From an uncultured Dehalococcoidia bacterium (GTDB lineage: Bacteria > Chloroflexota > Dehalococcoidia > DSTF01 > JACRBR01): a DNA stretch of 64,000 bases. Location: NCBI GenBank assembly GCA_964487335.1, contig CAZAPT010000004.1, positions 2,427 through 66,426 on the forward strand, read 5' to 3'. A program made the position numbers and the translations under genes. Positions within the stretch are counted from its first letter, which is position 1, and every line of letters begins with the position of its first letter. Of this stretch, positions 1-59,845 are shown one piece after another. The notes under the pieces are model-generated. The model was not told the DNA's origin, did no database searches, and saw only the letters and a list, made by a program, of their open reading frames with translations.

Positions 1-62
1 CAAACGCGACGGTGCGCGTGCGGCACGCCAAGTCACACTCGCAGAAAAAGAAGAAGTCATGA
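1..62 (+). CDS. rplC: 3' end of ribosomal protein L3 (partial; runs off the window start)
   Basis: Frame-3 ORF ends at TGA 60-62, overlapping the L4 ATG (ATGA). It sits directly upstream of rplD, as in the S10 operon. Confidence 0.45.
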   Translation, partial: NATVRVRHAKSHSQKKKKS

Positions 63-724
63 AGCTTGCCGTGCACGACGCCTCGGGGAAGGAAGTAGAC
101 AGCATCGAAGTGGATGATGCGGTGTTCGGCATCGAGCCGAACACCGCGGTCGTGCACCAGGCGCTGGTGGCTTCGATGGCGAACCGGCGCGCGGGCACGG
201 CTACGACGAAGACGCGCGGAGAAGTGCAGGGTTCGACGCGGAAGATCCGGCGGCAGAAAGGCACGGGCGCGTCGCGGCAGGGATCGATCAGGGCGCCGCA
301 TCACCGGCACGGTGGCATCGTGCACGGCCCACGTCGGCGCAGCTATGCGAAGGACCTGCCGAAGCGGATGCGCCGGCTGGCGATCCGATCGGTGCTTTCG
401 TCGAAGGCAGCGGACGGATCGCTGCGCGTCGTTAGCGAGCTAGCGATCTCGTCGCCGAGCACGAAGGCGATGGGATCGATCATCCGCTCGCTGGGGTTTG
501 AGCGATCGGTGCTGGTCGTAACCGGCGCCACGGACGCGAACGCCAAGGCGAGCGCGGGCAACCTCTCGAAGGTGCGCACGATCCCGGCTTCGTACCTCAA
601 CGTTGCGGACATGCTGGCGAGCCAGGGTCTGCTAATGACGGTGGACGCGGTGCGGGGCGCGGAAGCGCTCTGGGGCGGCGAGCGGGCGAAGCGGCGCCGT
701 ACGGCGGCGAAGGTGGAGGCGTAG
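59..724 (+). CDS. rplD: 50S ribosomal protein L4
   Basis: 221-aa ORF with an L4-like sequence, in S10 operon context. Confidence 0.93.
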   Translation: MKLAVHDASGKEVDSIEVDDAVFGIEPNTAVVHQALVASMANRRAGTATTKTRGEVQGSTRKIRRQKGTGASRQGSIRAPHHRHGGIVHGPRRRSYAKDLPKRMRRLAIRSVLSSKAADGSLRVVSELAISSPSTKAMGSIIRSLGFERSVLVVTGATDANAKASAGNLSKVRTIPASYLNVADMLASQGLLMTVDAVRGAEALWGGERAKRRRTAAKVEA

Positions 725-35754: not shown

Positions 35755-36214
35755 GTGCTGTTTGATTGATTTTTGTTTTTTCGAGTACGGGCGCGGGTTG
35801 AATCTGAGGGCCGTCGATGAGGCGACCGCACAGCTTCGGAATGTTGGTCGTTCTGATTGTCTTTGATTGATCGCGACCGAAAACAATCAACGCTGCAGAC
35901 GAGACGCGCATCGGGTGTACAACGTTAGCGGTTGTACGGATCCTGGCGAGCTCCGCAGTCGCGGGGAGTGTGGTCGAGTTTCGCTCCGTCATGACGCAGC
36001 GATGGTAGCGCAGCGGCGCGGGAACTTCGAAGCGGGAATTGCACTTCCGCCGAAATGCGCGAACGGCGAGGTCGCCCAAGCAGGCGGAAATCCTCACCAA
36101 GTGGTCTATATGAAACTGTTACGCCAGATGGCTCGTGGATCACTTATTTGGATTGCCGCATGTAGATGATGATTGCAGCATCAGATCCCCCGCGTGCCAC
36201 TGTCAGGAGGACTG

Positions 36215-38452
36215 GTGTCGAGACGAATCATCGCGAGGCTCGCGGCGGCAGCGCTGGCTGCGGCGCTCCTGCTTTTTCCTACGGCCTCCCCTCATCGAGC
36301 GAGTGCGGCGTCGTTTACGGTCACGTCACCAGCTGACACGCCGGACCTGGTGAACGCGGACGGGCTCTGCCTCGACGTGACGGGACAGTGCTCGCTGCGC
36401 GCGGCGATCGAGCAGGCGAACTTCAATGCATCTCCGACGACGATCAGCTTCGCGATCCCAGGGAGCGGAGTGCAGACGATCACGCTGCTCTCGGCGCTGC
36501 CGGCGGTGACGGTGCCGGTGGCGATCGACGCGACGACGCAGGCGGGGTTCTCGGGGACGCCGATCGTGGTGTTGGACGGAGTGTCGGCGGGCAGCGGGGT
36601 GGACGGGCTGCAGCTGACGGCAGGAAACAGCAGCGTGCGTGGTTTGGTGGTGGAGCGGTTCAGCGGGAACGGAATCACGCTCATGACGAACGGCGCGAAC
36701 ACGATCGCCGGGAACTACATCGGGATCGATGCGGATGGCGTTACGGCGCGAGGCAATGGCGCATCGGGCGTCGACGTGAACAACGTGGGTAATAACACGG
36801 TCGGCGGTACGGGCGCGGCGGACCGCAATGTGATTTCTGGGAACGGCGGGGATGGAGTTCTTATTGAGGGGACCAGCGCGGGCTCCAACCAGATTTCCGG
36901 GAACTACGTCGGAGTCGATGCAGCGGGAGTGATGAGAGTCCCGAATAGCGGCGATGGGATTGGCATCGAGGACGCTCCGAGCAACATGATCGGTGGGACG
37001 ACGGCGGGCGCGCGCAACTTACTCTCTGGAAACAACGGCGCGGGAATCTACATACACGGTGCTGGAGCGAGCGGAACGGTCATCCGCGCGAACTACATCG
37101 GGATTGACGCCACGGGCACCGCGTCTCTTCACAACCGGTTTGGGATTCACCTCTACTTCAGTTCAGGCGGACACGTCGTCGGCGGCCCAGCAGCGGACGA
37201 TCGCAACGTGATCTCGGGGAATTCTCAGGACGGAATCACGTTTCAATTCGAGTCCTTCGGCGCGGGAACGCTCCCCGATCTCGTGGAAGGAAACTTCATC
37301 GGGACGAATGCGGCGGGCAACGCGGCGATACCGAACCATTACGGCATCAGCGGGCTGTCCGCGAGGCCGGCGACGATTCGGGGAAACGTCGTCTCCGGCA
37401 ATACTCTCGATGGTCTGGCGGTGACCCTGGTAGATAGCGTAACGTCGAACTTCGTAGGCGTGCAGGCAGACGGGGTCAGCGCTCTTGGTAACGGCGGTAA
37501 CGGAGTCTCGATCAATAACAACTCACGGCAGTCAATCGGGACGACGACGACTGGCGAAGGGAACGTTATCGCCTTCAACGGCGCCGCCGGGGTGTGGTTG
37601 CAGTACAGCGGCGGCAGTACCGGTCGCCAGATATCGATCCGCGGGAACTCGATCTTCTCAAACGGGGCGCTGGGCATCGACCTAGCGACGCCGGGCTCGC
37701 CGATTTCGCCGCCGGGAGTGACGCCGAACGATCCGGGCGACGGTGATACCGGACCAAACGACCTGCAGAACTTCCCGGTGCTGTCGGTGGCGTCGTCCGG
37801 CGGGAGCACGACGGTCAACGGATCACTGAACAGCACCGCGAACACGACGTTCGACATCGACATGTACGCGAACCCGTCGTGCGACCCGTCGGGTTACGGC
37901 GAAGGAAAGACGTACCTGGGGTCGACGACGGTAACGACGGACGCGAGCGGGAGTGGTGGATTCACTTCGGTGTTCGCTGGCCTGCAGACGTACGTGACGG
38001 CGACGGCAACCGATCCGTCGGGAAACACGTCGGAATTCTCGCAGTGTGCCACGGCGGACAGCGATGGAGATGGGTGCCCGGATGCGCGCGAGCTGGGTGC
38101 GGACCACAAGACGGGCGGTCAGCGGGATCCGAACGACTTCTGGGACTTCTTCGACGTGCCGACGCCGCCGCTGGTGCCATCGAACACGACGGGCACGCGG
38201 AACCACGCGATCAGCATCGGGGACGCGATCGGGATCCTGGCGTACATCGGGACGAACAACGCGAACCCGAACCAGGCGAACTCGCAGGGGGCGACGTACG
38301 GGAGCGACTGGAACAACAACGGCATCGCGGACGGACAGGAGTACGACCGGACGCCGGGCGCGCAGGCGTGGGCGCCGGGGCCGCCGAACGGGGCGGTGAC
38401 GATCGGGGACGCGCTGATCGCGGTGAACGGGATCGGGGACAACTGTAACTAG
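36215..38452 (+). CDS. Secreted CSLREA-domain / right-handed parallel beta-helix repeat protein with a dockerin-like C-terminal module (paralog 1)
   Basis: GTG 36215 after an AGGAGG Shine-Dalgarno. Signal peptide, then GQCSLRAAIEQAN (the CSLREA motif), many GNYIG.D..G beta-helix repeats, and a C-terminal DSDGDGCPD...DWNNNGIADGQEYD...NC module. Confidence 0.8.
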   Translation: MSRRIIARLAAAALAAALLLFPTASPHRASAASFTVTSPADTPDLVNADGLCLDVTGQCSLRAAIEQANFNASPTTISFAIPGSGVQTITLLSALPAVTVPVAIDATTQAGFSGTPIVVLDGVSAGSGVDGLQLTAGNSSVRGLVVERFSGNGITLMTNGANTIAGNYIGIDADGVTARGNGASGVDVNNVGNNTVGGTGAADRNVISGNGGDGVLIEGTSAGSNQISGNYVGVDAAGVMRVPNSGDGIGIEDAPSNMIGGTTAGARNLLSGNNGAGIYIHGAGASGTVIRANYIGIDATGTASLHNRFGIHLYFSSGGHVVGGPAADDRNVISGNSQDGITFQFESFGAGTLPDLVEGNFIGTNAAGNAAIPNHYGISGLSARPATIRGNVVSGNTLDGLAVTLVDSVTSNFVGVQADGVSALGNGGNGVSINNNSRQSIGTTTTGEGNVIAFNGAAGVWLQYSGGSTGRQISIRGNSIFSNGALGIDLATPGSPISPPGVTPNDPGDGDTGPNDLQNFPVLSVASSGGSTTVNGSLNSTANTTFDIDMYANPSCDPSGYGEGKTYLGSTTVTTDASGSGGFTSVFAGLQTYVTATATDPSGNTSEFSQCATADSDGDGCPDARELGADHKTGGQRDPNDFWDFFDVPTPPLVPSNTTGTRNHAISIGDAIGILAYIGTNNANPNQANSQGATYGSDWNNNGIADGQEYDRTPGAQAWAPGPPNGAVTIGDALIAVNGIGDNCN

Positions 38453-38471: not shown

Positions 38472-40763
38472 ATGAGGGCGAGGATGGTTCGAATCGCAGG
38501 AATCGCGCTCGTGGCGGCGGCGCTGCTGGCAACCCCTGCATTGTCGCCACACCGGGTGCTCGCGGCTTCGTACGTGGTGAATTCGACGGCGGACACGGGT
38601 GATCTGTTGTTGGCGGACGGCGTGTGTGACGCGGGTGGCGGGGTGTGCACGCTTCGGGCGGCGATCCAGCAGGCGAACTTCAACCCGGGCGCGGACACGA
38701 TCACATTCAGCATCGGTTCCGGGGTGCGGACGATCGCGCCGATGTCGGCGCTGCCGGACGTGACGGGCGCGGTGACGATCGACGGGACCACGCAGCCGGG
38801 GTTCTCGGGAGCGCCGATCATCGAGCTGTCGGGCGTGAGCGCGGGGAGCGGCGTCGATGGCCTGAAGCTGACCGGCGGAAGCAGCATCGTGAAGGGGCTA
38901 GTGATCAACCGTTGGGGCGCGAACGGGATCGAGATGGCGACGCTGGGCGGGAACACGATCGCAGGGAATTACATCGGCACGGATGTGACCGGGACGATGG
39001 AGCAGCCCAACGGCGGCGACGGGGTGCTGCTTGGGGCGAATGCGTCAAACAACACGATCGGCGGCACGACGGCCGGCTCGAGGAACGTCCTCTCGGGCAA
39101 CCCAGGCTACGGAGTCAGCACTTTCCATACCGGGAGCCCCGCGTCGAACAACCAGATCCTCGGTAACTACATCGGTACGGACGCTTCCGGAGCGACCGCG
39201 TTGCCAAATGCCAGTGGTGTAGGGATCGGCGATCCCAACAATACGATCGGCGGCCCGACGCCGGCCGCACGAAATGTCATCTCTGGGAATACGAACCAGG
39301 GTGTCTTTATCTCCGGTCCCAGCGCTACGGGCACGATCGTTCAAGGAAACTACATCGGCACCGACGTGAGCGGGACGTCGGATCTGGGGAACGCGCACAA
39401 CGGCATTGGTCTCTATGGAGGAACGAGTGCGAACCAAATCGGCGGGCTTGCGCCGGGTGAGGGCAACCTCATCTCCGGAAACGACGGGCTTGGCATCCGG
39501 TACTTCGCACCAGCCATCGGCCAGACGATACAGGGCAATTACGTTGGCACGAACGCCGCAGGTACAGCGGCGATTCCTAATGGATACGGGATGTTCGTCG
39601 GCGGAGACGCGACGATTTCGCCCGTGGGCACCGATCTGATTGAACAGAATCTCGTGTCCGGCAACACGATTGTCGGCATTGACGTCCAGGGACCGCGTAC
39701 GAACGTTTACGGAAACCTGATTGGGACTCAGAGCGATGGAGTAAGCCCGCTGGGCAATGCCGGCCCGGGGATGGACGCGTTCGGCCCGACGACCAATGTC
39801 GGTGGCAGTGCAAGCGGTCAAGGAAACACGATCGCCTTCAACGGTGGCCCTGGCGTATACGCGGGTGGCGCAGCTGTCGTCAGCTACAACTCAATCCACC
39901 ACAACACCGGTGTAGGCATCGTCGTCAGCGGCACCACGAATTCCTTTAGCCACAATGCTGCCTACGCGAACGGTGGACTCGGAATCGATCTGGGCGGCGA
40001 TGGCGTGACCCCGAACGACATGGGAGACGGCGACAGCGGCGCAAACAACCTGCAGAACTACCCGGTGATCACGTCGGCGACGTGGAGCGGGACGGCGACG
40101 AACATCAACGTGACCTTCAACAGCACCGCGAGCACGACGTTCACGCTGGAGTTCTTCTCGAACGATACCTGCGATCCGTCGGGGTACGGGGAGGGGCAGT
40201 CGTACTTCTACTCGAACTCGCCGACGACGGACGCGGGAGGGAACGCGAGCTTCACCGTGACGACGGGCTTCGACTTCCGCGGGAAGGGAATCACGGCGAC
40301 GGCGACGGACCCGAACGGGAACACGTCTGAATTCTCGAACTGCGCACTTGTGCCGGCGCCGGCAGTCGATACAGACGGCGACGGGTGTCCGGATGCGCGG
40401 GAGCTGGGGGCGGACCATAAGACGGGCGGGCAGCGGAACCCGAACGACTTCTGGGACTTCTTCGACGTGCCGACGCCGCCGCTGGTGCCATCGAACACGA
40501 CGGGCACGCGGAACCACGCGATCAGCATCGGGGACGCGATCGGGATCCTGGCGTACATCGGGACGAACAACGCGAACCCGAACCAGGCGAACTCGCAGGG
40601 GGCGACGTACGGGAGCGACTGGAACAACAACGGCATCGCGGACGGACAGGAGTACGACCGGACGCCGGGCGCGCAGGCGTGGGCGCCGGGGCCGCCGAAC
40701 GGGGCGGTGACGATCGGGGACGCGCTGATCGCGGTGAACGGGATCGGGGACAACTGTAATTAG
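38472..40763 (+). CDS. Secreted CSLREA-domain / parallel beta-helix repeat protein with a dockerin-like C-terminal module (paralog 2)
   Basis: Signal peptide; GVCTLRAAIQQAN; GNYIGTD repeats; the C-terminal ~110 aa is identical to paralog 1. Confidence 0.82.
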   Translation: MRARMVRIAGIALVAAALLATPALSPHRVLAASYVVNSTADTGDLLLADGVCDAGGGVCTLRAAIQQANFNPGADTITFSIGSGVRTIAPMSALPDVTGAVTIDGTTQPGFSGAPIIELSGVSAGSGVDGLKLTGGSSIVKGLVINRWGANGIEMATLGGNTIAGNYIGTDVTGTMEQPNGGDGVLLGANASNNTIGGTTAGSRNVLSGNPGYGVSTFHTGSPASNNQILGNYIGTDASGATALPNASGVGIGDPNNTIGGPTPAARNVISGNTNQGVFISGPSATGTIVQGNYIGTDVSGTSDLGNAHNGIGLYGGTSANQIGGLAPGEGNLISGNDGLGIRYFAPAIGQTIQGNYVGTNAAGTAAIPNGYGMFVGGDATISPVGTDLIEQNLVSGNTIVGIDVQGPRTNVYGNLIGTQSDGVSPLGNAGPGMDAFGPTTNVGGSASGQGNTIAFNGGPGVYAGGAAVVSYNSIHHNTGVGIVVSGTTNSFSHNAAYANGGLGIDLGGDGVTPNDMGDGDSGANNLQNYPVITSATWSGTATNINVTFNSTASTTFTLEFFSNDTCDPSGYGEGQSYFYSNSPTTDAGGNASFTVTTGFDFRGKGITATATDPNGNTSEFSNCALVPAPAVDTDGDGCPDARELGADHKTGGQRNPNDFWDFFDVPTPPLVPSNTTGTRNHAISIGDAIGILAYIGTNNANPNQANSQGATYGSDWNNNGIADGQEYDRTPGAQAWAPGPPNGAVTIGDALIAVNGIGDNCN

Positions 40764-40769: not shown

Positions 40770-40822
40770 CGTGGAGGACGCGTCGTCGGAGTTGCACCTG
40801 GATGATTGGGAAGGATGAGCGT

Positions 40823-43525
40823 ATGAAGCGGTTCGCCGGCTGCGCACTTGCGGCGCTAGCGGCTGCGTGCATGTTCGCGGCGGCAGCGCGTGATGCGAGG
40901 ATCACAAACGCCGATCCGTTCAACGACGTATTCGTGTACAAGACGACGTGGAGCACGCTGGCGCCGAACAGCGCGCCGAACCTCGATATACAGCTGAGCA
41001 TCGATTGTCAGCTCGGCGCGGGCTCGTGTCCTGCCACCTCGAACGCCCCGCTGTTCGATGTGGCGGCGACGCAATACACGGCCAACGTGGTGGCGTGCAC
41101 GGTGACGAACCCCGGAACTGGGGCCTGCGCGGGAAAGGTGCCAACCGACGCGAGGCTCGGCACGGTAGACATGCAACTGAGCACGAACCTGATAGCGGCT
41201 CGCCTGCCGGACAACGTCGATGCGACGACGGGCACCGTTGCGGCGTGCGGCGGGGCCGGCACGAGCACGCTCACACAGACGTTCACGATCTACAACGGAA
41301 ATACGAGCGCCAGTGCGCTCGTCAGCGGCAAAGACGGTCCGGACCTAGACAACCTGCCTGACACGGAGGCCGACGCGTCCGGCGTGGACGCCACTGACGC
41401 GTTGACACCGGGACCGAACGGCATTCCTGATGGAGCCGATGGGCTGCCCGACTACATCAAGCTGATGCTCGATACTTCGCTTCCTACGTTGATCAGCCGC
41501 GGGTTCGGGGTTGCGCAGATCGTGCCGCAATCCGCACAGGTCGACGTGAACTTCCTGACGCTGAACCTGGGGCCGTTCGGCGGCGGTTATGCATCGGTGA
41601 CGACGATTGGCGACGTGCGGCCGATGCTGCTGCCGGACGCCAACGCAAGCCAGGCGACCGAGACGTGCGCGCCGTTCGCGAGCACGGTGCATCTGCTCGG
41701 CACGTCACAGGACAGCTTCGGGACATCGTGGACGGCGAACGGCGTCACGACGACGCATCTGCTGCATGAGCTTCCGACGGTCGCGCGGACGATCACGGGA
41801 TCGGCGGGCGATCCGATCCACTACGCGATCGACGTGTCGGGCGCGGAGGACGTGGATGGAGATGGTGTTCCAGCGACGATCGACCGATGTCCGAACCCCG
41901 ACGTCGGGCTGTTCCCGTCGGCGAACTCATTAACGGCGTCGAGCGGCGCGACCGATACCGACGGCGACGGGATGGGTGACAGTTGCGATCCCGATCCGCT
42001 GACCGCGAACAACTGCCCGGGGACCGCGTTCCCCGGAAAGTCAGCGGCGTGCGCGGGTGACCTGTTTGTCGGGCCGAACTATCCGACGAAAGAGGCGGGC
42101 TGCAGTTACACCGATGCGGGCGGATCGCCGGCGACGTACTCGGAGGACGGCGACCTAAAGAGCACTCACGTGACGTGCGCTGGCACCGCGTGGAAGCCGG
42201 ACCAGGACATCGACGGGGACGGGTGGGCGAACTGGTTCGATAACTGCCCGACGGTTTACAACCCGGAGCAGACGGACGTGAACGCCGACGGCATCGGCGA
42301 TGCGTGCCAGGTGCTCGTGAACACGGCGGCGGGGCCGCGCCCGCCGCGACCGCTGCACGACCACGACGACTTCTGCGACGCGGCGACGACGGTCGGCGGC
42401 ATCACGGCACCGGGCACGACGTGCTTCGCGAGCGTACCGCACGCAGCAGGGACCACGGGCTCAACGCCGACAGCGGGCATCGCACAGGACTCGAACGACG
42501 ACGGCTTCCCGGACTTTCTCGTCGTGCCGGGGTTCAGCTTCGGCGACAAGAACAGCGACTCGGACTGGGATGGGTGTCCGGACTACTCGGAGGTGAGCCA
42601 GACGGCATCGGGTAGCGCGTGCGGGCCGTCCTACGGCGTGGCGAGTGTGCCGAACGCATACCCGAATACTGTCGGTCGCCAGTGCGGCGTCGGGATCACG
42701 ACGTGTCTGAACCCGAAGCTCCCGAACACGAGTGGCGGCAACGAGTGCGGAAGCGGTCCGCCGATTACAGGCGGCGGGGCGACCGTGACGTACAACAGCC
42801 AGACGATGACCGACACGAGCAAGAACTTTCTCTGGAACAGTCTCGTGGGCAAGACGATCACGTCAGGGGCGAGCAGCGGCACGATCGGAAGTAACACCGC
42901 GACGGGAGTGTCGCTCACTGGCAACTGGACGGGAGCGACCCCAGGTCCGGGAGACGCCTACACGATTGCACCAGGAGGTGGGATTTATCTTCCGCCCCAC
43001 ACTATCCAGGACGCCGCGCATTGTGTCGATGGCGGGAAGGACGACCCGAACGGATCGCCGGACGCGCAGGACATCGGGCTGGACTTCAGCCAGCAGGACA
43101 TTCCCGGCACAGGTAACCCGAACGGCGGTAACGCAGACAGCGACGGCGACGGCTGCACGAACCGACACGAGGTGCTCCCGAACACACCAAAGGCGAATGC
43201 AGGCGGCCGCGATCCAATAAACAAGTGGGATTTCTACGACGTCGACACCAACAACAACGGGACAGTGGGGAAGAACCGAGCGATCTCAATCCAAGATACG
43301 ATCGCGATCCTCCAGTACATCGGGGTGAGTTCGGCGAACCCCACCGTTCAAAACGCGAACGGGAAGACGTATGCGGGTGACGACAACCAGGACGGGATCT
43401 CGAACGCGATTACGTTCGACCGAAGTCCGGCCGGCGTCTTGACCGGCCCGCCGAGCGGCGCGGTCTCGATTGCCGACGCCGTCAGCAACGAGAACCAGAT
43501 CGGAGCGAACTGTTCGACGCCGTAA
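40823..43525 (+). CDS. Large secreted protein with thrombospondin-type-3-like Ca-binding repeats and the same dockerin-like C-terminal module
   Basis: ATG 40823 (MKRFAGCALAALAAA signal). Multiple D.D.DG..D..D repeats (DTDGDGMGDSCDPD, DIDGDGWANWFDNC...). The C-terminus ...RDPINKWDFYDV...GDDNQDGISNA...NC aligns to the paralog 1 and 2 tails. Confidence 0.78.
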   Translation: MKRFAGCALAALAAACMFAAAARDARITNADPFNDVFVYKTTWSTLAPNSAPNLDIQLSIDCQLGAGSCPATSNAPLFDVAATQYTANVVACTVTNPGTGACAGKVPTDARLGTVDMQLSTNLIAARLPDNVDATTGTVAACGGAGTSTLTQTFTIYNGNTSASALVSGKDGPDLDNLPDTEADASGVDATDALTPGPNGIPDGADGLPDYIKLMLDTSLPTLISRGFGVAQIVPQSAQVDVNFLTLNLGPFGGGYASVTTIGDVRPMLLPDANASQATETCAPFASTVHLLGTSQDSFGTSWTANGVTTTHLLHELPTVARTITGSAGDPIHYAIDVSGAEDVDGDGVPATIDRCPNPDVGLFPSANSLTASSGATDTDGDGMGDSCDPDPLTANNCPGTAFPGKSAACAGDLFVGPNYPTKEAGCSYTDAGGSPATYSEDGDLKSTHVTCAGTAWKPDQDIDGDGWANWFDNCPTVYNPEQTDVNADGIGDACQVLVNTAAGPRPPRPLHDHDDFCDAATTVGGITAPGTTCFASVPHAAGTTGSTPTAGIAQDSNDDGFPDFLVVPGFSFGDKNSDSDWDGCPDYSEVSQTASGSACGPSYGVASVPNAYPNTVGRQCGVGITTCLNPKLPNTSGGNECGSGPPITGGGATVTYNSQTMTDTSKNFLWNSLVGKTITSGASSGTIGSNTATGVSLTGNWTGATPGPGDAYTIAPGGGIYLPPHTIQDAAHCVDGGKDDPNGSPDAQDIGLDFSQQDIPGTGNPNGGNADSDGDGCTNRHEVLPNTPKANAGGRDPINKWDFYDVDTNNNGTVGKNRAISIQDTIAILQYIGVSSANPTVQNANGKTYAGDDNQDGISNAITFDRSPAGVLTGPPSGAVSIADAVSNENQIGANCSTP

Positions 43526-43633: not shown

Positions 43634-44119
43634 TTAGCTGTTGCGGCCGGGGTTCTTCTTGCAGTGGTGGTCGCCGAGGTGGAGGCCGTTGTCGCCCTTG
43701 CGGCTGCTGCCGAAGTGGTTGCCGTTGTCGCCGCCGGAGCATTGAGTCGCCGTCGGGACGGGCGTGTCGGTTGCCCCTGGACCCGGCGTGTCGGTCGCGA
43801 CGGCCTCCGTCGCGGTGGGCTCCGGCGTGTCGGTGTCGGTAGCGGTCGGCACAGGCGTGTCCGTAGCGTCCGGCGTATCCGTCGCTGCGGGCGTATCCGT
43901 GGATGTAGCGACGGCGGTCTCGGTGCCGGACGGCGTCTCGGTCGCGGCAGCGGTGGAAGTCGGCGTCTCGGTGTCGGGGGTGCCGGTCACGGTCTCGGTG
44001 CCGACTACGAGCGGATCAGTCGCGAACTTCTTCACTTTGTCGTTCGAGGCGTAGACCCCGGCAGCGGCGAGCGATACGAGCACGATGGCGATACCTGCGG
44101 ACAGGATTTTCTGGCGCAT
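43634..44119 (-). CDS. Secreted or anchored Thr/Pro/Asp-rich repeat protein (TDTP/TETP linker) with a short Cys-containing C-terminal module
   Basis: GAGGAG Shine-Dalgarno 7 nt before the ATG. N-terminal hydrophobic signal/anchor. About 100 aa of T[DE]TP repeats, then CSGGDNGNHFG...HHC. Confidence 0.65.
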   Translation of the reverse strand: MRQKILSAGIAIVLVSLAAAGVYASNDKVKKFATDPLVVGTETVTGTPDTETPTSTAAATETPSGTETAVATSTDTPAATDTPDATDTPVPTATDTDTPEPTATEAVATDTPGPGATDTPVPTATQCSGGDNGNHFGSSRKGDNGLHLGDHHCKKNPGRNS

Positions 44120-44350
44120 TCAGACTCCTCGTGGTGAAACACGTCGACACGGGCGGCGCTCGGCGGCCGCAGACCTCTGACCCACGGTTACTATCGAACG
44201 GTGGCCAGAAACCCGTTGCGGAGGACGGGCAAAATTTCCCAATCTTCGTGCGGCCCAGATTCAGCGTTACAGGTTCGCCGTTGACTGTTCAGATCGGGGT
44301 GACGGCGCCGATAGGTAGGGTGAGGCACCTAATGAGGTGACCTGAATACT

Positions 44351-44449
44351 CTCCGAAAAAGGCAAACCCGTCGTGAGGCGGGGACGCAAAGCCACGGATC
44401 CTCTCCACTTCGGTGGGCGGACAGCCGGGTTGCCGGGCCAGCTTCGGAG
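44351..44449 (+). ncRNA. Candidate c-di-GMP-I (GEMM) riboswitch aptamer
   Basis: Hallmark GGCAAACC (44361-68) and GGGACGCAAAGCC (44381-93) flank a GNRA hairpin CCCGUC-GUGA-GGCGGG. The enclosing P1 is CTCCGAA (44351-57) / TTCGGAG (44443-49). This architecture parallels Vc2-type GEMM. Confidence 0.6.
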
Positions 44450-44455
44450 CCTTGG

Positions 44456-44487
44456 CCCACTTCACACGGGCGTGAGGTGGGTTTTTT
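44456..44487 (+). terminator. Intrinsic terminator (riboswitch expression platform) in the leader of the TadE/G-like gene
   Basis: CCCACTTCAC-acgggc-GTGAGGTGGG, a 10-bp stem with one G.U pair, followed by TTTTTT, about 30 nt before the start codon. Confidence 0.7.
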
Positions 44488-44518
44488 CAATGCTCCGAAA
44501 TCCACTGGGAGGTGGAGC

Positions 44519-45826
44519 ATGGCGCGGTCAGTCCTTCATTTCATCACGTCCATCCGGCAGTTCAGATCGCTCCGTCGCTGCGGCGAGCGGGGCCAAGTGT
44601 TGATGATCGGTGTTCTCATTCTTCCGATCCTACTGGGCGCCTCGGGCCTCGTGATCGATTACGGCATCGCGGCCGCCGCTCGTCGGGACACCCAGAACGC
44701 GGTAGACGCTGCAGCGCTCGCGGCTGCCGGGGTGCGCGTAAAGGGCGGAAGTATCTCGGATGCGACGACGGCTGCGAACTCCTACATCACGAAGAACGGC
44801 TATTCCAGCAGCAACGCCCACGTGTACATTCCGCCGACGACTGGAGCGCATGCCGGTGACAGCAATTACGTGGAAGTCACGCTCACCACGAATCCGCCGA
44901 CGGCGTTCGTCCGAACGGTTGGCATCAACTCCGTGACCATCACGTCTCGTGGCGTCGCGGGGTTCAACAGCAGCGCCGTGAAGCACTACGCGATGGTCGT
45001 CCTCGACCCGACGATGTGCTCGTCGTACAGCCAGTCCAGTGGGAACACGCTCACGCTGAACGGCGGCGGCGTCATGGTAAATTCGTCCTGCAAGCCGTCG
45101 GGCAACCAGGGTGGCGGCAGCACGCTGAAGGCGGACTTCGTCGACTACTACAGCGCAGGCTCCTGGCAGCTGAGCAACAACGCGTCCACGTCCATCGCGG
45201 CAACAGCAGTCACGTCCACGATCACGGATCCGCTCGCATCGAAGGCCCGACCGGACCTCAGCACACTCTCCGTCTCATCCGATTCCGGTGGCACGGCTGC
45301 GAGCCCCTCTCTTAAGCAGGTCAACAGCGACGCCACGCTGCACCCCGGCATCTATTACGGCGGTCTGAAGATCAGCGGGTCCCCGACCATAACGTTCCAG
45401 GCCGGTCTCTATGTCTTCGCAGGCGGCGGCTTCACCTACAGCGCTTCCGCCACGCTATCGGGGACCGACGTGACGTTCTTCAACACCAGCGACCCCTACG
45501 CGTCACATGGGGGATCGTGTGCCAGCATCGCCCTGCAGGGCAGCGGGAGCATCAGCCTGAGCGCCCCCACGAGCGGAACGTACAAGAACATGCTGTTCTG
45601 GCAGGCCGATGACTGCACCGCGCAGATGAAGTATGCCGGCTCGTCCTACCTCACCGTCGGTGTCATCTACCTCCCCAAGGCCGAGCTGAACGTTTCCGGC
45701 GGCGGCACGTTGGGTGCGCTACAGATCGTGGTGAACAACTTCAGCTACACCGGTTCGAGTTCTGTCACGGTGAACTACGCGGATTACGTACCGATTGCCC
45801 CGCCGACCTTTAAGCTGGTCGAATAG
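44519..45826 (+). CDS. TadE/TadG-like (Flp pilus-assembly / pseudopilin-like) protein
   Basis: ATG 44519 after a GGGAGGTGGAG Shine-Dalgarno. N-terminal TM followed by the TadE-like motif LVIDYGIAAAARRDTQNAVDAAALAAA. The rest is Ser/Thr/Gly-rich and likely beta-rich. Confidence 0.7.
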   Translation: MARSVLHFITSIRQFRSLRRCGERGQVLMIGVLILPILLGASGLVIDYGIAAAARRDTQNAVDAAALAAAGVRVKGGSISDATTAANSYITKNGYSSSNAHVYIPPTTGAHAGDSNYVEVTLTTNPPTAFVRTVGINSVTITSRGVAGFNSSAVKHYAMVVLDPTMCSSYSQSSGNTLTLNGGGVMVNSSCKPSGNQGGGSTLKADFVDYYSAGSWQLSNNASTSIAATAVTSTITDPLASKARPDLSTLSVSSDSGGTAASPSLKQVNSDATLHPGIYYGGLKISGSPTITFQAGLYVFAGGGFTYSASATLSGTDVTFFNTSDPYASHGGSCASIALQGSGSISLSAPTSGTYKNMLFWQADDCTAQMKYAGSSYLTVGVIYLPKAELNVSGGGTLGALQIVVNNFSYTGSSSVTVNYADYVPIAPPTFKLVE

Positions 45827-45884: not shown

Positions 45885-47738
45885 TCACGCCTGGGGAAGC
45901 GCGGTCGGGCGGCGGCGCCGGAGGGCGGAGAGGCGAATGATGCGTTCGCGGCGGCGTTCGTGGTCGAGGTGTCGGACGCGGGCGCTGAGGAGATCGGCGA
46001 GTGCGATCATGCCGGCGAAGTTCATGGTGTCGCGCTCGACGACGGGGAGGCGCGTGAAGCCGGTTTCGGCCATGCGATACGCGACGGCGCGGAGAGGCTC
46101 ATCGGGGTACGCGACGACCGGGTCGGTGACCATGACGTCAGCGAGGCGGTGCGACGCTCCATCGCCATCGGGCGAGGGCTGGCGGGCGGCGCTGTGCGGG
46201 ACGACGCCGACGAGCGTGCCACCGGCATCGACGACGGGGTAGAGGCGGGGCGGGCGCCGGCCGTGGCCGTTCGAGAAGAAAGAGAGCGCTGGCGACACGC
46301 GTGACGCTTCTAGGACGGGGACGTCGGTGCGCATGACTTCGCGAACAGACATCGTCTCGAGCGGATCGATCGCGTACTCGCGGCTGAGGTGGTAGCCGCG
46401 GCGGCTGACCTTCTCGGTGAGCATCGAGCGGCGCATCACCATCACGGTGCAGGCGTAGGCGACGACGACGGCGATGAGGAGCGGGGTCAGTGCGTTGAGG
46501 TCGTGCGTCAATTCGAGCGCAAAGACGACGGCGGTGAAGGGCGAACGCATCGTGCCGCCGAGGACGGCGGCGATGCCGATGAGCGGCCAGAAGCCAGCTC
46601 CTTCGGACGGCAGGAAGGTGCCGAGCAGGGCGCCCATCGCGCCGCCGATCATCAGCAGCGGGGCGAGCACGCCACCGGACGTACCGGAGCCGAGCGATAT
46701 CGCCCAGATCGTGGACTTGATCAGAAGGATGCCGAGGACGAGACGCATCGACGCGTCGGACTGGAGGAGCGTGCTGATGTTGCCGTAGCCGACGCCGAGC
46801 GCTTCGGGGAACACCAGACCGCTAATGCCAATGAAGAGCGCGCCAATCGCGGGCCACCACATCCAGTGGATGGGAATCCGGGCGAAGGCGTCCTCGGCGG
46901 CGTAGATGGAGACCGTGAGCGCTGCGGACAGCGCACCCGCGGCGACGCCGATGAGGAGGCATCCGGCGAAGCCGGGAATGCCGATGTATGCGGGATGGGG
47001 TGGCGCCGGGAATAGCGGGCCGGGGCCGATGATCTGGTGGCGCACGACGGCCGCGGTGGCACTGGCGAGCGCCACGGGGACGACGCTTCGGGGCTTCCAT
47101 TCGAAGAGCAGCAGCTCGACCGACAGGAGAACTGCGGCGATCGGCGAGGCGAACGTCGCGGACATGCCGCCCGCGGCGCCAGCGACGAGCAGCGTCTTCC
47201 GCTCGACTGCGGAGAGGTGAAAGCACTGGGCGATGATCGAGCCGAAAGCGCCGCCCGTCATGATGATCGGACCTTCGGCGCCGAAGGGGCCACCGGACCC
47301 GATCGATATCGCGGACGAGAGCGGCTTGAGGACGGCGACGCGCGGCTGCATGCGGCTCTCGCCGATGAGGATGGCCTCGAGGGCCTCCGGGATGCCGTGG
47401 CCGCGGATTCGGTCTGAGCCGTATCGCGCCATGACGCCGATGATCAGCGCGCCGATGACGGGAACGATGATCACGAACGGGCCGAGGCTATTGTCAGCGG
47501 GATTGGCGAGTGACGTGCCGAGACGCTGGAAGAAGAACAGGTTGGTGAAGAGGCCGATGAGGCGTAGCAGCGCGAGCGCGACGAACGCGCTGATGACGCC
47601 GATGCCGGTCGCCATCGCGGCGATGAGGATGAGGCGCGGGGTGACGACGAAGTCGGCGAGCTTCTCGACGGCAGGCGCCGTCGCCATCCCTGCGGCGGCG
47701 TTTGATGTTCGGCGCCGGATGAGATCGAAGAACGTCAA
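45885..47738 (-). CDS. ClC-family chloride channel / H+-Cl- antiporter with C-terminal CBS domains
   Basis: 617 aa, multi-TM protein with ClC selectivity motifs (GSGIP-like, GREGP-like) and a C-terminal CBS pair. Confidence 0.85.
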   Translation of the reverse strand: MTFFDLIRRRTSNAAAGMATAPAVEKLADFVVTPRLILIAAMATGIGVISAFVALALLRLIGLFTNLFFFQRLGTSLANPADNSLGPFVIIVPVIGALIIGVMARYGSDRIRGHGIPEALEAILIGESRMQPRVAVLKPLSSAISIGSGGPFGAEGPIIMTGGAFGSIIAQCFHLSAVERKTLLVAGAAGGMSATFASPIAAVLLSVELLLFEWKPRSVVPVALASATAAVVRHQIIGPGPLFPAPPHPAYIGIPGFAGCLLIGVAAGALSAALTVSIYAAEDAFARIPIHWMWWPAIGALFIGISGLVFPEALGVGYGNISTLLQSDASMRLVLGILLIKSTIWAISLGSGTSGGVLAPLLMIGGAMGALLGTFLPSEGAGFWPLIGIAAVLGGTMRSPFTAVVFALELTHDLNALTPLLIAVVVAYACTVMVMRRSMLTEKVSRRGYHLSREYAIDPLETMSVREVMRTDVPVLEASRVSPALSFFSNGHGRRPPRLYPVVDAGGTLVGVVPHSAARQPSPDGDGASHRLADVMVTDPVVAYPDEPLRAVAYRMAETGFTRLPVVERDTMNFAGMIALADLLSARVRHLDHERRRERIIRLSALRRRRPTALPQA

Positions 47739-55702: not shown

Positions 55703-57268
<1,566 letters not shown>

Positions 57269-57269
57269 G

Positions 57270-57599
57270 ATGCCCTCAGCGAAGGGTGGCCCGCGCCCGA
57301 AGCACATCCCCATTCGCACGTGCATCGGGTGCAGGAGCAGCGAAGCCAAGCGCGGGCTGGTACGCATCGTGCGGACGCCCGAGGGGCGGGTCGAGCTGGA
57401 CCCGACAGGGAAGAAGAACGGACGCGGAGCGTACGTGCACGAGGCGCGCTCGTGTTGGGACGAAGCGCTGAAGCAGGACCGCATCGGGCGGGCGCTGAAG
57501 GTTTCGCCGCCGCAGGACGACATCGAGATGCTGAGGGCGCACGCGGAGACGCTGGCGCCGGTGGCGGCCGAGAGCGCACAGGGTAACGGGACTTCATGA
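57270..57599 (+). CDS. ylxR: YlxR/RnpM-family RNA-binding protein (DUF448)
   Basis: Motif PIRTCIGCR...GRGAYV; located between nusA and infB. Confidence 0.85.
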
Positions 57600-59386
57600 C
57601 GACAGCAGACACGAGCACCAAGAGCGTCGAGATACCGCGTGTCCTGTCCGTGAAGGACCTGGGCGATCTGCTTGGCGTGTCCCCGGTCGAGGTCATCAAG
57701 GAGCTGATGAAGAACGGCGTGATGGCCGCCATCAACCAGACGATCGACTTCGACACCGCGGCGATCGTTGCGACGGACCTGGGGTTCGAGGCGATCGAGC
57801 CGCGGGCGGCGGCGGAGCAGGCCGTCGAAGCGCCTGCAGCCGACGGTCAGCCGAAACGCGCGGTCATCGAAGAAGACGAGACGAAGGTCGTGTCGCGACC
57901 GCCGGTCGTGACGATCATGGGGCATGTTGACCACGGGAAGACGAGCCTGCTCGACGCGATCCGCGAGACGAAGGTCACAGCGGGCGAGGCCGGCGGTATC
58001 ACGCAGCACATCGGCGCGTACCAGGTGCACGTCGACTCGCACGACATCACGTTCCTCGACACTCCGGGCCACGAAGCGTTCACGGCGATGCGCGCGCGCG
58101 GCGCGAAAGTCACGGACGTGGCGGTGCTGGTGGTGGCGGCGGACGACGGCGTGATGCCGCAGACGAAAGAAGCGATCGACCACGCGAAGGCGGCCGGCGT
58201 GCCGATCGTGGTGGCGCTGAACAAGATCGACCTTCCAAATGCGAACCCGGACCGGGTGAAGAAAGAGCTGTCGGACAACGGGGTGGTGATCGAGGAGTGG
58301 GGTGGCGACACGCCGCTTGTGCCGGTCTCTGCGAAGACCCGCGAGGGGCTGGACGACCTGCTGCAGAACATCCTGGTAGTGTCGGAGGTGCTCGATCTCA
58401 AGGCGGACCCCACGCGCGCGGCGATCGGCATCGTGGTCGAGGCGGAGCTGAGCAAGACGCGCGGGCCGCTGGCAACAGTGCTGGTGAAGACGGGGACGCT
58501 GCACGTCAGCGACTACGTCGTCGTCGGCGAGACGATGGGCCGGTTGAAGGCGATGCAGAACGAGCACGGCAAGCGCATCAAGGTAGCGGGGCCCTCGGCG
58601 CCGGCGGAGATCCTTGGGCTGCAAGCGGTGCCGAAGGCGGGCGAGACGTTGCAGGTCGCGCCGGATGAGAAGACGGCGCGGGCGACAGTGCTGGGGCGCA
58701 TCCGCGAGCGCGAGGCGGCGGCGATGCACCAGCAGCAGCGGGTGACGCTCGACACGCTGTTCGGTGAGATCAGCGCCGGGAAGCTGAAAGAACTCAACAT
58801 CATCCTCAAGACGGACGTGCAGGGCTCGATCGAGCCGATCCGGACGTCGCTGGAGCGGCTTTCGAACGAGCAGGTGAAGGTAAAGATCATCCACACCGGC
58901 TCCGGATCGATCACGGAGACGGACGTAATGCTCGCGGTGGCGTCGGGCGCGATCATCATCGCGTTCAACACGGGGCTCGAGGGCGGGGCGGAGCGGTTGG
59001 CGGCGCAGGAGAAGGTGGACATCCGCCACTACAGCGTCATCTACAACATCGTCGAGGACGTGGACAAAGCGCTGAAGGGGATGCTGGAGCCGACGTTCCG
59101 CGAGGTGGTGACGGCGCATGCGGAAGTGCGGCAGGTGTTCAAGGTATCGCGCCGCAACTCTATCGCCGGCTGTTTCGTGCGGGACGGGATGGTGAACCGG
59201 AACGACAGCGCGCGGGTGCTGCGGAACGGTCAGGGCGTGTACACCGGCAAGCTGACGTCGCTGAAGCGGTTCCAGGACGACGTCCGGGACGTAGCGGCGA
59301 ACTTCGAGTGCGGGGTGCAGGTCGAGGGGTTCGACAGCTTCGAGCCGGAGGACGAGATCGAGTTCTTCCGGACGGAGCGGGAGTAG
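57596..59386 (+). CDS. infB: Translation initiation factor IF-2 (short N-terminal form)
   Basis: G domain [24 protein letters not shown]. Confidence 0.95.
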
Positions 59387-59485
59387 GGGCGCGGCTGACG
59401 TCTCGCCAGAACAAACAGCAAGGATCGAACAAATCGGCGCCGCGACTGCCGTGAGTTGCTCGGCGGGTCGCTCTTGGTGTGATGG

Positions 59486-59845
59486 ATGACTCAGCGGACG
59501 GAGCGGCTTAGCCACGTGGTGCGCAAGGAGCTGAGCGAGCTGCTTCGTGACGAGATGCGGGATCCGCGCGTCGGCGGACTGGTGACGGTGACGCACGTCG
59601 ATGTTTCGCCGGACCTGCGGCACGCGGTCGCGTTCGTCAGCGTGCTCGGGACGCACGAGGAGCGGACATCGACGATGGAGGCACTTCGGCACGCGCGGCC
59701 GTTCCTCAGACGAGAGCTGGCGCAACGCATGACCTCGAAGAACACCCCGGATCTTGACTTCCGCGCGGACGACTCGATGGAGAAGGCGCAGGAGCTGACG
59801 GACCAGATGCGGCGCAACGCCGCGGAGCGCGGGGAGACGCTCTGA
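59486..59845 (+). CDS. rbfA: Ribosome-binding factor A
   Basis: 119 aa, RbfA KH-like sequence. Confidence 0.9.
   Translation: MTQRTERLSHVVRKELSELLRDEMRDPRVGGLVTVTHVDVSPDLRHAVAFVSVLGTHEERTSTMEALRHARPFLRRELAQRMTSKNTPDLDFRADDSMEKAQELTDQMRRNAAERGETL

Follow-up and report, generated by a model that had tools for sequence, protein, structure and literature searches.

A predicted class I cyclic di-GMP riboswitch in the leader of a TadG-related gene from an uncultured Dehalococcoidia bacterium

A riboswitch of the cyclic di-GMP (c-di-GMP) class I type, or GEMM-I fold, was identified at 44352-44438 on the plus strand of a 64,000-nucleotide (nt) stretch of DNA from an uncultured Dehalococcoidia bacterium (Chloroflexota; assembly GCA_964487335.1, contig CAZAPT010000004.1, positions 2,427 to 66,426), hereafter the window. 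It lies in the leader of a TadG-related gene (44519..45826, +). The best explanation, which we hold to be likely, is a canonical class I aptamer in this leader acting through a composite expression platform, tentatively as an OFF switch. The direction taken by itself, with c-di-GMP promoting termination, has about an even chance.

The aptamer would sense c-di-GMP and act in cis through a platform that is inferred to consist of an 8-nt segment named c, an intrinsic terminator, a second segment named e and a hairpin around the Shine-Dalgarno (SD) sequence. Ten further metagenomic loci, of which eight are distinct, have the same riboswitch in front of a TadG-like gene or a tadE-tadG operon; names such as L004 stand below for the loci compared. 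The element is an ordinary instance of a well-known riboswitch class.

Identity of the element and its Rfam family

When the whole window was scanned against Rfam with cmscan, the sole riboswitch match was at 44352-44438 (+), a c-di-GMP-I clan match of 73.4 bits (E 1.7e-15) spanning the full model (1-80). A local cmscan of the same aptamer gave E 8.2e-18 with only chance-level matches around it, and no second aptamer copy was found in the 64-kb window with our own covariance model R1. This match, the Pfam match of the downstream protein (PF13400) and the recurrence before homologous genes bear out the GEMM riboswitch which the initial annotation had proposed from the letters of the sequence. 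Of the two Rfam families that it had named for a search, RF01051 and RF01786, neither came out on top. The top-scoring family was RF03167 (c-di-GMP-I-GGC variant), with 73.4 bits where its gathering score is 59; removing the P1 strands left it in first place, at 58.2 bits. A second family of clan CL00126 also exceeded its own gathering score and was hidden by clan competition; this is probably RF01051 (gathering score 35). The c-di-GMP-II family RF01786 gave no match at gathering thresholds, nor at E up to 10 in 44250-44560.

In the lines printed by cmscan, the consensus of RF03167 reads ...GGGACGC-G-AAgCc... and ...ggGcUGCcg, and that of RF01051 reads ...GACGC-A-AAgCc... and ...ggGcUgCCg. Their sole conserved difference in the binding site is G versus A after GACGC, which is position 47 in the numbering of the Vibrio cholerae Vc2 aptamer. 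The window reads GACGC-A-AAGCC and the match line is blank at this variant-defining position, so position 47 (44388) is A and not G. By deduction, "GGC" would stand for G20/G47/C92 and the canonical site for G/A/C. Nothing relevant on A47G was found in the literature, and the NAR 2017 paper made no mention of variant classes. An A in place of G at position 20 defines the 3',3'-cGAMP riboswitch (GEMM-Ib) (PMC7288161), and the window carries G44361 there. With the triad G44361/A44388/C44433 and the bridge C44385-G44424, 44352-44438 is predicted to combine a canonical c-di-GMP-I site with a scaffold like that of RF03167, and not to be a GGC, cGAMP (A20) or class II site.

RF03167 probably outscores RF01051 owing to this scaffold, because the CUAAG/UAUG tetraloop receptor, part of the RF01051 consensus, is missing from P3 of the window. 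The one related leader with the receptor, L004, which is the closest orthologous leader, was assigned to RF01051 with 80.2 bits. The GGC-variant label was given to the window and to 7 of 8 related leaders; that is, 8/9 aptamers with canonical G20/A47/C92 (the set of the window, L004, L006, L008, L009, L014, L070 and L076) were labelled c-di-GMP-I-GGC by Rfam clan competition. This is a pitfall for annotation, and automated counts of the variant may be inflated because scaffold similarity drives the clan competition. In this lineage the RF03167-type scaffold occurs naturally with A47, and such versions could be compared with true G47 variants in the search for the ligand of that orphan variant.

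Aptamer fold and ligand site

Both GEMM signatures noted initially were present, GGCAAACC at 44361-44368 and GGGACGCAAAGCC at 44381-44393, together with the GNRA-capped hairpin between them, which has 6 base pairs (bp; 44367-72 / 44377-82) and the loop GUGA (44373-76). P1 (UCCG/CGGG, 44352-55 / 44434-37) has 4 bp and adjoins C92. Its core pairs in the Rfam alignment are G44355-C44434 and C44354-G44435, extendable by C44353-G44436 and U44352.G44437. P2 is composed of 44362-63 / 44386-87 and the 6-bp hairpin stem, and P3 (44390-44400 / 44420-31) bears the apical hairpin CCAC-UUCG-GUGG at 44405-16.

The pairing was counted over 22 pairs in 9 related aptamers, with 3' partners slid by 1-3 columns as the control. 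In this small and related sample, 97% of cells were paired, against 24-50% when partners were slid, and four pairs had changes on both sides. P1 was 100% paired, its outer pair being U-A in 5, U.G in 3 and C-G in 1.

In Vc2, G20, A47 and C92 are ligand contacts and the interhelical pair C44-G83 is universal (PMC4744006); C46-A47-A48-A49-G50 is listed for the same site (PMC7288161). By alignment to the Rfam consensus, the corresponding bases of the window are G44361 (G20), C44385 (C44), A44388 (A47), G44424 (G83) and C44433 (C92). At the sequence level, the GAC bulge of P2 contains C44385 and the AG bulge of P3 contains G44424. The string GCAAAGC was found in 12/12 related copies, and A47, G20 and C92 likewise.

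The three-helix junction, G20/A47/C92, C44-G83 and the GNRA loop of P2 are shared with Vc2 and Vc1 of V. cholerae (RF01051), and here too the aptamer stands in the 5' leader of a gene of the surface or adhesion type. The window differs from Vc2 in its P3, which lacks the 11-nt GAAA-tetraloop receptor (present in the sequence of L004) and ends in a UUCG hairpin, in the P2 loop GUGA, in a P1 of only 4 bp with a stronger distal competitor, and in an intrinsic terminator placed inside a longer rod. The host, an uncultured Chloroflexota bacterium, is also different. With RF03167 the window shares a P3 without the receptor motif, the strings AAAGGCAAACC and AGCCGGGyUGCCG and the modelled P1, while the variant-defining G47 is A in the window and in all related leaders.

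Competition between P1 and a distal pairing

The initial annotation enclosed the element in a 7-bp P1, CUCCGAA/UUCGGAG. This complementarity is real (44351-57 / 44443-49, one base off the implied position), but it is not the P1 of the aptamer. Segment a (CUCCGAA, 44351..44357, +) is the 5' strand common to the true P1 (with 44434-37) and the distal pairing (with 44443-49), and segment c (UUCGGAGC, 44443..44450, +) is the 3' strand of the distal pairing, complementary to both a and e. As the two helices use the same 5' strand they are mutually exclusive, and the 7-bp distal helix was rejected as the aptamer P1 since it competes for that strand with the P1 adjoining C92.

In the energy model the distal helix contributed -7.9 kcal/mol and the true P1 -2.3 kcal/mol, and the duplex energies were -10.4 kcal/mol for a:c and -15.1 kcal/mol for c:e. 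In the unconstrained fold the distal helix was accompanied by a non-native helix, GGC(44361-63):GCC, which buries G20-C22, so the conformer with the distal pairing is predicted to be unable to bind the ligand. Among the homologous leaders the true P1 was paired in 9/9, while the distal pairing was kept with 6-8 bp in the window, L091, L008, L004, L070 and L076, was broken (lost or weakened) in L009 and was missing from L006 and L014. In L097 and in a second aptamer copy of L004, CGGAG itself is the P1 strand adjacent to C92. The distal pairing is therefore read as a platform element that competes with P1, and segment c has a better-conserved partner in segment e (GCUCCGAA), located 3' of the terminator.

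Terminator and expression platform

The platform and the hairpin upstream of the aptamer were compared by folds of each sequence and by duplex energies, as MAFFT/RNAalifold misaligned the covarying stems. A hairpin with a U tract, predicted to be an intrinsic terminator, was located at 44454..44487 (+). Its 12-bp stem (44454-65 / 44472-83) has 6 G-C pairs and a 6-nt loop, its 10-bp core (44456-65 / 44472-81) contains one G.U, and U6 follows at 44482-87, ending 31 nt before the ATG at 44519. This matches the strong terminator described earlier at about 30 nt before the start codon. The terminator scan by itself was not above the shuffle expectation (1 found versus 0.6 expected), and the case rests on the strength of the hairpin (-19.4 kcal/mol) and on its recurrence in related leaders. 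Equivalent hairpins were seen in L091 (U5), L004 (U7), L008 (UCUUUU) and L009 (UUCCUU), and none in L006 and L097.

Segment e (44492..44499, +) repeats segment a, the 5' strand of P1, and pairs with c. The leader thus holds a three-copy relay in which CUCCGAA occurs twice, at 44351 and at 44493, and its complement UUCGGAGC once between them, at 44443. The c:e pairing amounted to -15 to -23 kcal/mol across the leaders and encloses the terminator in a long rod. Because this rod was in the minimum free energy (MFE) fold of the window, L091, L008, L009 and L004, and the extension of its lower stem changed in a compensatory way (UUG/CAA, UCAA/UUGA, CGA/UCG, CAA/UUG), e would be the conserved partner of c. 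The ribosome-binding region (44501..44521, +) contains a hairpin, UCCAC-UGGGAG-GUGGA (44501-16), with the SD core GGAGG at 44508-12 and the ATG at 44519-21, and analogous SD hairpins were present in L091, L008, L009 and L006. AUGCUCC (44490-96), which overlaps e, and GGAGCAU (44514-20), which runs from the end of the SD region into the beginning of AUG, are complementary, with a duplex energy of -12.6 kcal/mol.

Folding also revealed a candidate anti-terminator, hairpin h (GGGCCAGCU-UCGG-AGC..UGGCCC, 44435..44458, +; -13.7 kcal/mol), which overlaps the 3' strand of P1 (G44435-37) and the first five bases (GGCCC) of the 5' arm of the terminator. Hairpin h is identical in L091, while L009 and L076 have moderate or weaker versions of it and those of L008, L004 and L070 are poor. 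When transcripts of increasing length were folded in the free state, the MFE contained a:c at transcript ends 44448-56, h at 44460-68, and a:c with the terminator from 44472 onward. With the native aptamer forced, the fold always ended with a partial h and the full terminator core, and the native aptamer lay 6.6-9 kcal/mol above the free fold. The apex of P3, which shares CCACUUC / GGUGGG with the terminator, was considered as an anti-terminator and rejected, since L091 has an identical terminator and a different P3 apex.

Direction of switching

For the OFF direction, binding of c-di-GMP would lock P1 and withhold G44435-37 from hairpin h (44435-58); with h blocked, the terminator (44454-83 plus U6) would form and transcription would stop. 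In the ligand-free leader, P1 would lose out to the distal a:c pairing at first and later to h, which would transiently sequester the GGCCC base of the terminator and permit read-through, after which c could pair with e to give the long rod. Several results are consistent with this scheme. When P1 was locked in folding, no competitor for the terminator was left. Hairpin h has the geometry of a classical anti-terminator and was in the free-state MFE at transcript ends 44460-68. The gap of 6.6-9 kcal/mol lies within the binding energy expected for picomolar to nanomolar affinity for c-di-GMP. In L097, the P1 3' strand CGGAG is itself the Shine-Dalgarno sequence, 4 nt before the AUG of tadE, which is a classical OFF design.

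Other results weigh against a canonical aptamer with a terminating platform. The terminator was in the MFE of both states (a:c plus terminator, -53.6 to -63.5 kcal/mol), and anti-termination by h would on this account be purely kinetic. Hairpin h was strong only in the window and L091, and P3 of the window has no 11-nt tetraloop receptor such as the RF01051 consensus shows. The modelled accessibility of the ribosome-binding site, with and without the forced aptamer, changed in no consistent direction over 10 leaders. Furthermore, c-di-GMP usually activates adhesion and pilus genes. The last point against it is that, in 5/6 TadG-type leaders, the sequence around the start codon (UGGCGCGGU, 44520-28) and the P1 3' region (GCCGGGCCA, 44432-40) are complementary, with duplexes of -12.7 to -13.3 kcal/mol; the sixth, L004, has a shorter and shifted ACCGG/CCGGU pairing of -8.4 kcal/mol.

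This complementarity leads to the strongest alternative, in which the same aptamer is a translational ON switch. Here the GCCGGGCCA region of the ligand-free leader would pair with UGGCGCGGU, and c-di-GMP would lock P1 and free the start; or else free e (AUGCUCC) would pair with the SD/AUG (GGAGCAU) while a holds c, and the ligand would let c sequester e. The terminator-like hairpin would mainly be a structural rod joining the two ends. We regard this as possible, though doubtful. Its long-range helix was in the MFE of the leader tails of the window, L091, L008 and L009, and L091 turns the G.U into G-C and varies the one unpaired position. The start-region string ATGGCGCGG was found in riboswitch-bearing homologues only, while homologues without the riboswitch differ there. 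The c:e rod with its compensatory changes persists in both states, L006 lacks any terminator, the duplex of e with the SD/AUG has a predicted energy of -12.6 kcal/mol in the window, and the usual activation of adhesion and pilus genes by c-di-GMP fits an ON switch. However, the forced aptamer leaves the terminator of 10-12 bp with its U6 uncontested, and ligand-bound transcripts should then terminate. Since the two strands of the long-range helix hardly vary, real covariation is lacking, and ATGGCGCGG is shared by those leaders that are also the closest relatives. The modelled accessibility of AUG shifted little and inconsistently, and the design of L097 is of the OFF type. An ON switch working through the terminator was rejected as well, because with P1 locked only 2 nt of the 5' arm of the terminator could be sequestered.

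It is improbable that the terminator is constitutive and the main product is an aptamer RNA of ~165 nt acting alone as a c-di-GMP-binding small RNA or sponge, with the gene expressed by leak-through. The strength of the terminator (-19.4 kcal/mol, U6) and its place in the MFE of both states would suit such a product, but the element is always sense-oriented and immediately upstream of tadG/tadE genes, L006 and L097 have no terminator while L097 couples P1 directly to the SD, and the conserved c:e rod needs sequence past the terminator. Least probable, and very unlikely, is a true member of the RF03167 variant class sensing a ligand other than c-di-GMP, for which the top score, with or without the P1 strands, and the receptor-less P3 speak, but against which stand the A at position 47, the one conserved binding-site difference between the two consensuses, the invariance of A47, G20 and C92 in all 12 related copies, and the assignment of the closest ortholog to RF01051.

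As an OFF switch acting by termination, the predicted riboswitch would resemble known systems. Cd1, in the flgB leader of Clostridioides difficile, is a c-di-GMP-I OFF switch of the terminator type, and type IV pilin gene pilA1 of the same species has a c-di-GMP-II riboswitch upstream, a known ON switch. The window shares with the latter a c-di-GMP riboswitch on a gene related to type IV filaments, but it differs in the aptamer class (no RF01786 match here) and in the branch of the pilus superfamily. Bc1 of Bacillus thuringiensis is a further c-di-GMP-I OFF switch of the terminator type (PMC11218506). As in Cd1 and Bc1, the aptamer of the window is followed by a rho-independent terminator and the 3' strand of P1 overlaps a candidate anti-terminator. 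The window differs from both in controlling a pilus-related gene rather than flagella or chemotaxis genes, in an anti-terminator which is only marginally competitive in the energy model, in the extra repeat elements (a, c, e) and the SD hairpin, and in a direction that is predicted only.

The three-copy relay, the terminator inside a conserved rod, the possible helix between the P1 3' region and the start codon and the conserved 5' hairpin described below could all be parts of one circuit. That they form a two-level decision circuit, in transcription and translation, kept in a Chloroflexota lineage seems unlikely.

Occurrence in related leaders

Related loci were recovered from metagenomes and assemblies through homologues of the TadG-like protein, and were searched with R1 and with Rfam. 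The protein search of genome contigs gave only relatives 24-25% identical and no useful leaders. The aptamer was found 43-76 nt upstream of standalone tadG-like genes in L004, L006 (= L084), L008, L009 (= L094), L091 and L014, and before tadE-led operons containing tadG in L070, L076, L096 and L097. It was absent upstream of the tadG homologues in L005, L007, L086, L088, L089, L092, L093 and L095 and in about 65 more distant loci. The association of aptamer and tadG is real but patchy.

That GEMM-I elements precede pilus and adhesin genes has been known from the first description of the class onward, and nothing specific was found in the literature on a c-di-GMP riboswitch with TadE, TadG or the Tad pilus. 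The recurrence suggests that, in uncultured Chloroflexota of soil and sediment, c-di-GMP signalling has a direct effect on pseudopilin genes of the Tad type (TadG- and TadE-like); to our knowledge, there is no genetics for these organisms. The element is a concrete RNA available for testing. By-products of the analysis are the caveat on Rfam mislabelling and a group of related leaders whose platform is unusual in containing repeats.

Three of the loci had particular features. On one soil contig (L004) two divergent c-di-GMP-I aptamers, at 9-100 (-) and 487-583 (+), lie ~390 nt apart, one oriented toward the TadG-like gene and one running off the end of the contig; P1 of the copy on the minus strand is CUCCG/CGGAG, with C92 as its immediate neighbour. 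L097 (795-835) is the leader of a tadE-tadE-tadG-tadE operon, and the AUG that follows its P1-embedded SD is at 806. The gene caller missed this AUG and called GUG 851, inside the conserved prepilin-like motif RGQSLVEFAL. In the same leader, GGACUC at the 5' end of the aptamer is complementary to GAGUCC in codons 9-10. In L093 (1-3000) a TadG-like homologue (49% identical) without the riboswitch adjoins a divergent ECF sigma factor gene, a putative anti-sigma gene and a gene for a PAS-GGDEF-EAL protein, which suggests that this gene family is also reached by a c-di-GMP or sigma route based on proteins.

Upstream leader

The initial annotation gave the TadE/G-like gene a leader of roughly 400 nt. 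The intergenic region is indeed 399 nt long, but it is shared with a divergent gene, and the leader would be more like ~200 nt, since conserved upstream motifs suggest a transcript start near 44320. The first motif is a bipartite candidate promoter, TTCAGATC-N12-CCGAT(AGGT), at 44288..44316 (+), which was recognized by its conservation in the leaders as TTCAGATC ... CGAT(n)GAT some 35-60 nt before the aptamer. TTCAGA and CGA(T/G) were spaced 15 nt apart in the window, L091, L008, L006 and L004 (AACAGA), and 16 nt in L009 (TTCAAG), while the CGAT-like half occurred in 10/10 leaders (the window, L091, L008, L009, L004, L006, L097, L014, L070 and L076). A scan for sigma-70 consensus promoters found no sites, and the bipartite motif could serve as a promoter for a factor other than sigma-70 or as a binding site for a protein.

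The second feature is a 5' hairpin at 44324..44342 (+), with the core CACCU-AAUG-AGGUG at 44326-44339, ~10 nt upstream of P1. A tetraloop hairpin of 5-6 bp was present at the same position in 6/6 TadG-type leaders (the window, L091, L008, L009, L004 and L006), with the stems CACCU, CUCCC (twice), CCCCC, GAAGCC and GCCCC and fold z-scores of -1.7 to -2.7. Since the stem sequences differ at the same position in most leaders, covariation is suggested. The hairpin is followed by a cuGAAUA-like string, lies outside any Rfam model and was not clear in tadE-type leaders. It is possibly the 5'-terminal stem-loop of the transcript.

Two repeats of leader strings were seen in coding regions. At 44561-44586, inside the coding region of the TadG-like gene, TTCAGATCGCUCCG contains a further copy of both the TTCAGATC motif seen upstream and the GCUCCG found in segments a and e, and in L070 a second CUUCGGAGC copy lies inside the coding region.

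Downstream gene and genomic context

The downstream gene encodes a protein of 435 amino acids (aa) with an N-terminal Tad domain (Pfam PF13400, E 9.8e-09, residues 25-70). Homologues numbered 281, several of them named TadG-related at source, and the exact protein was found on one NCBI contig and one Logan contig. The gene for a CLC channel (45885-47738, -) converges on it, so the TadG-like gene is monocistronic, as expected for the standalone TadE/TadG-like gene of the initial annotation. Pfam annotation of the window revealed no Tad machinery near it, and its neighbours were housekeeping genes.

The element had also been placed at the edge of a surface-protein island. This is plausible, as four open reading frames (ORFs) upstream have N-termini resembling signal peptides, and c-di-GMP control of attachment functions is conjectural. 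Three of these ORFs are large (759, 763 and 907 aa; 36173-38452, 38472-40763 and 40802-43525, all +). The fourth, a Thr/Pro/Asp-rich ORF of 161 aa (43634-44119, -), is divergent and lies between the large ORFs and the leader. The first two are tandem paralogous Gly/Asn/Thr-rich proteins of ~760 aa with an identical 29-aa C-terminus (QAWAPGPPNGAVTIGDALIAVNGIGDNCN), and the 907-aa protein contains a thrombospondin type 3 repeat, with no other Pfam match in the four-ORF group. The window has a G+C content of 66%, and its LepA protein shares 87-89% identity with proteins from Dehalococcoidia and Chloroflexota metagenome-assembled genomes, those of Dehalococcoidia being the closest. Further downstream, an ORF of 1185 aa (56168-59725, -) had no Pfam match, and its third-position G+C was 0.72, compared with 0.80-0.9 in its neighbours.

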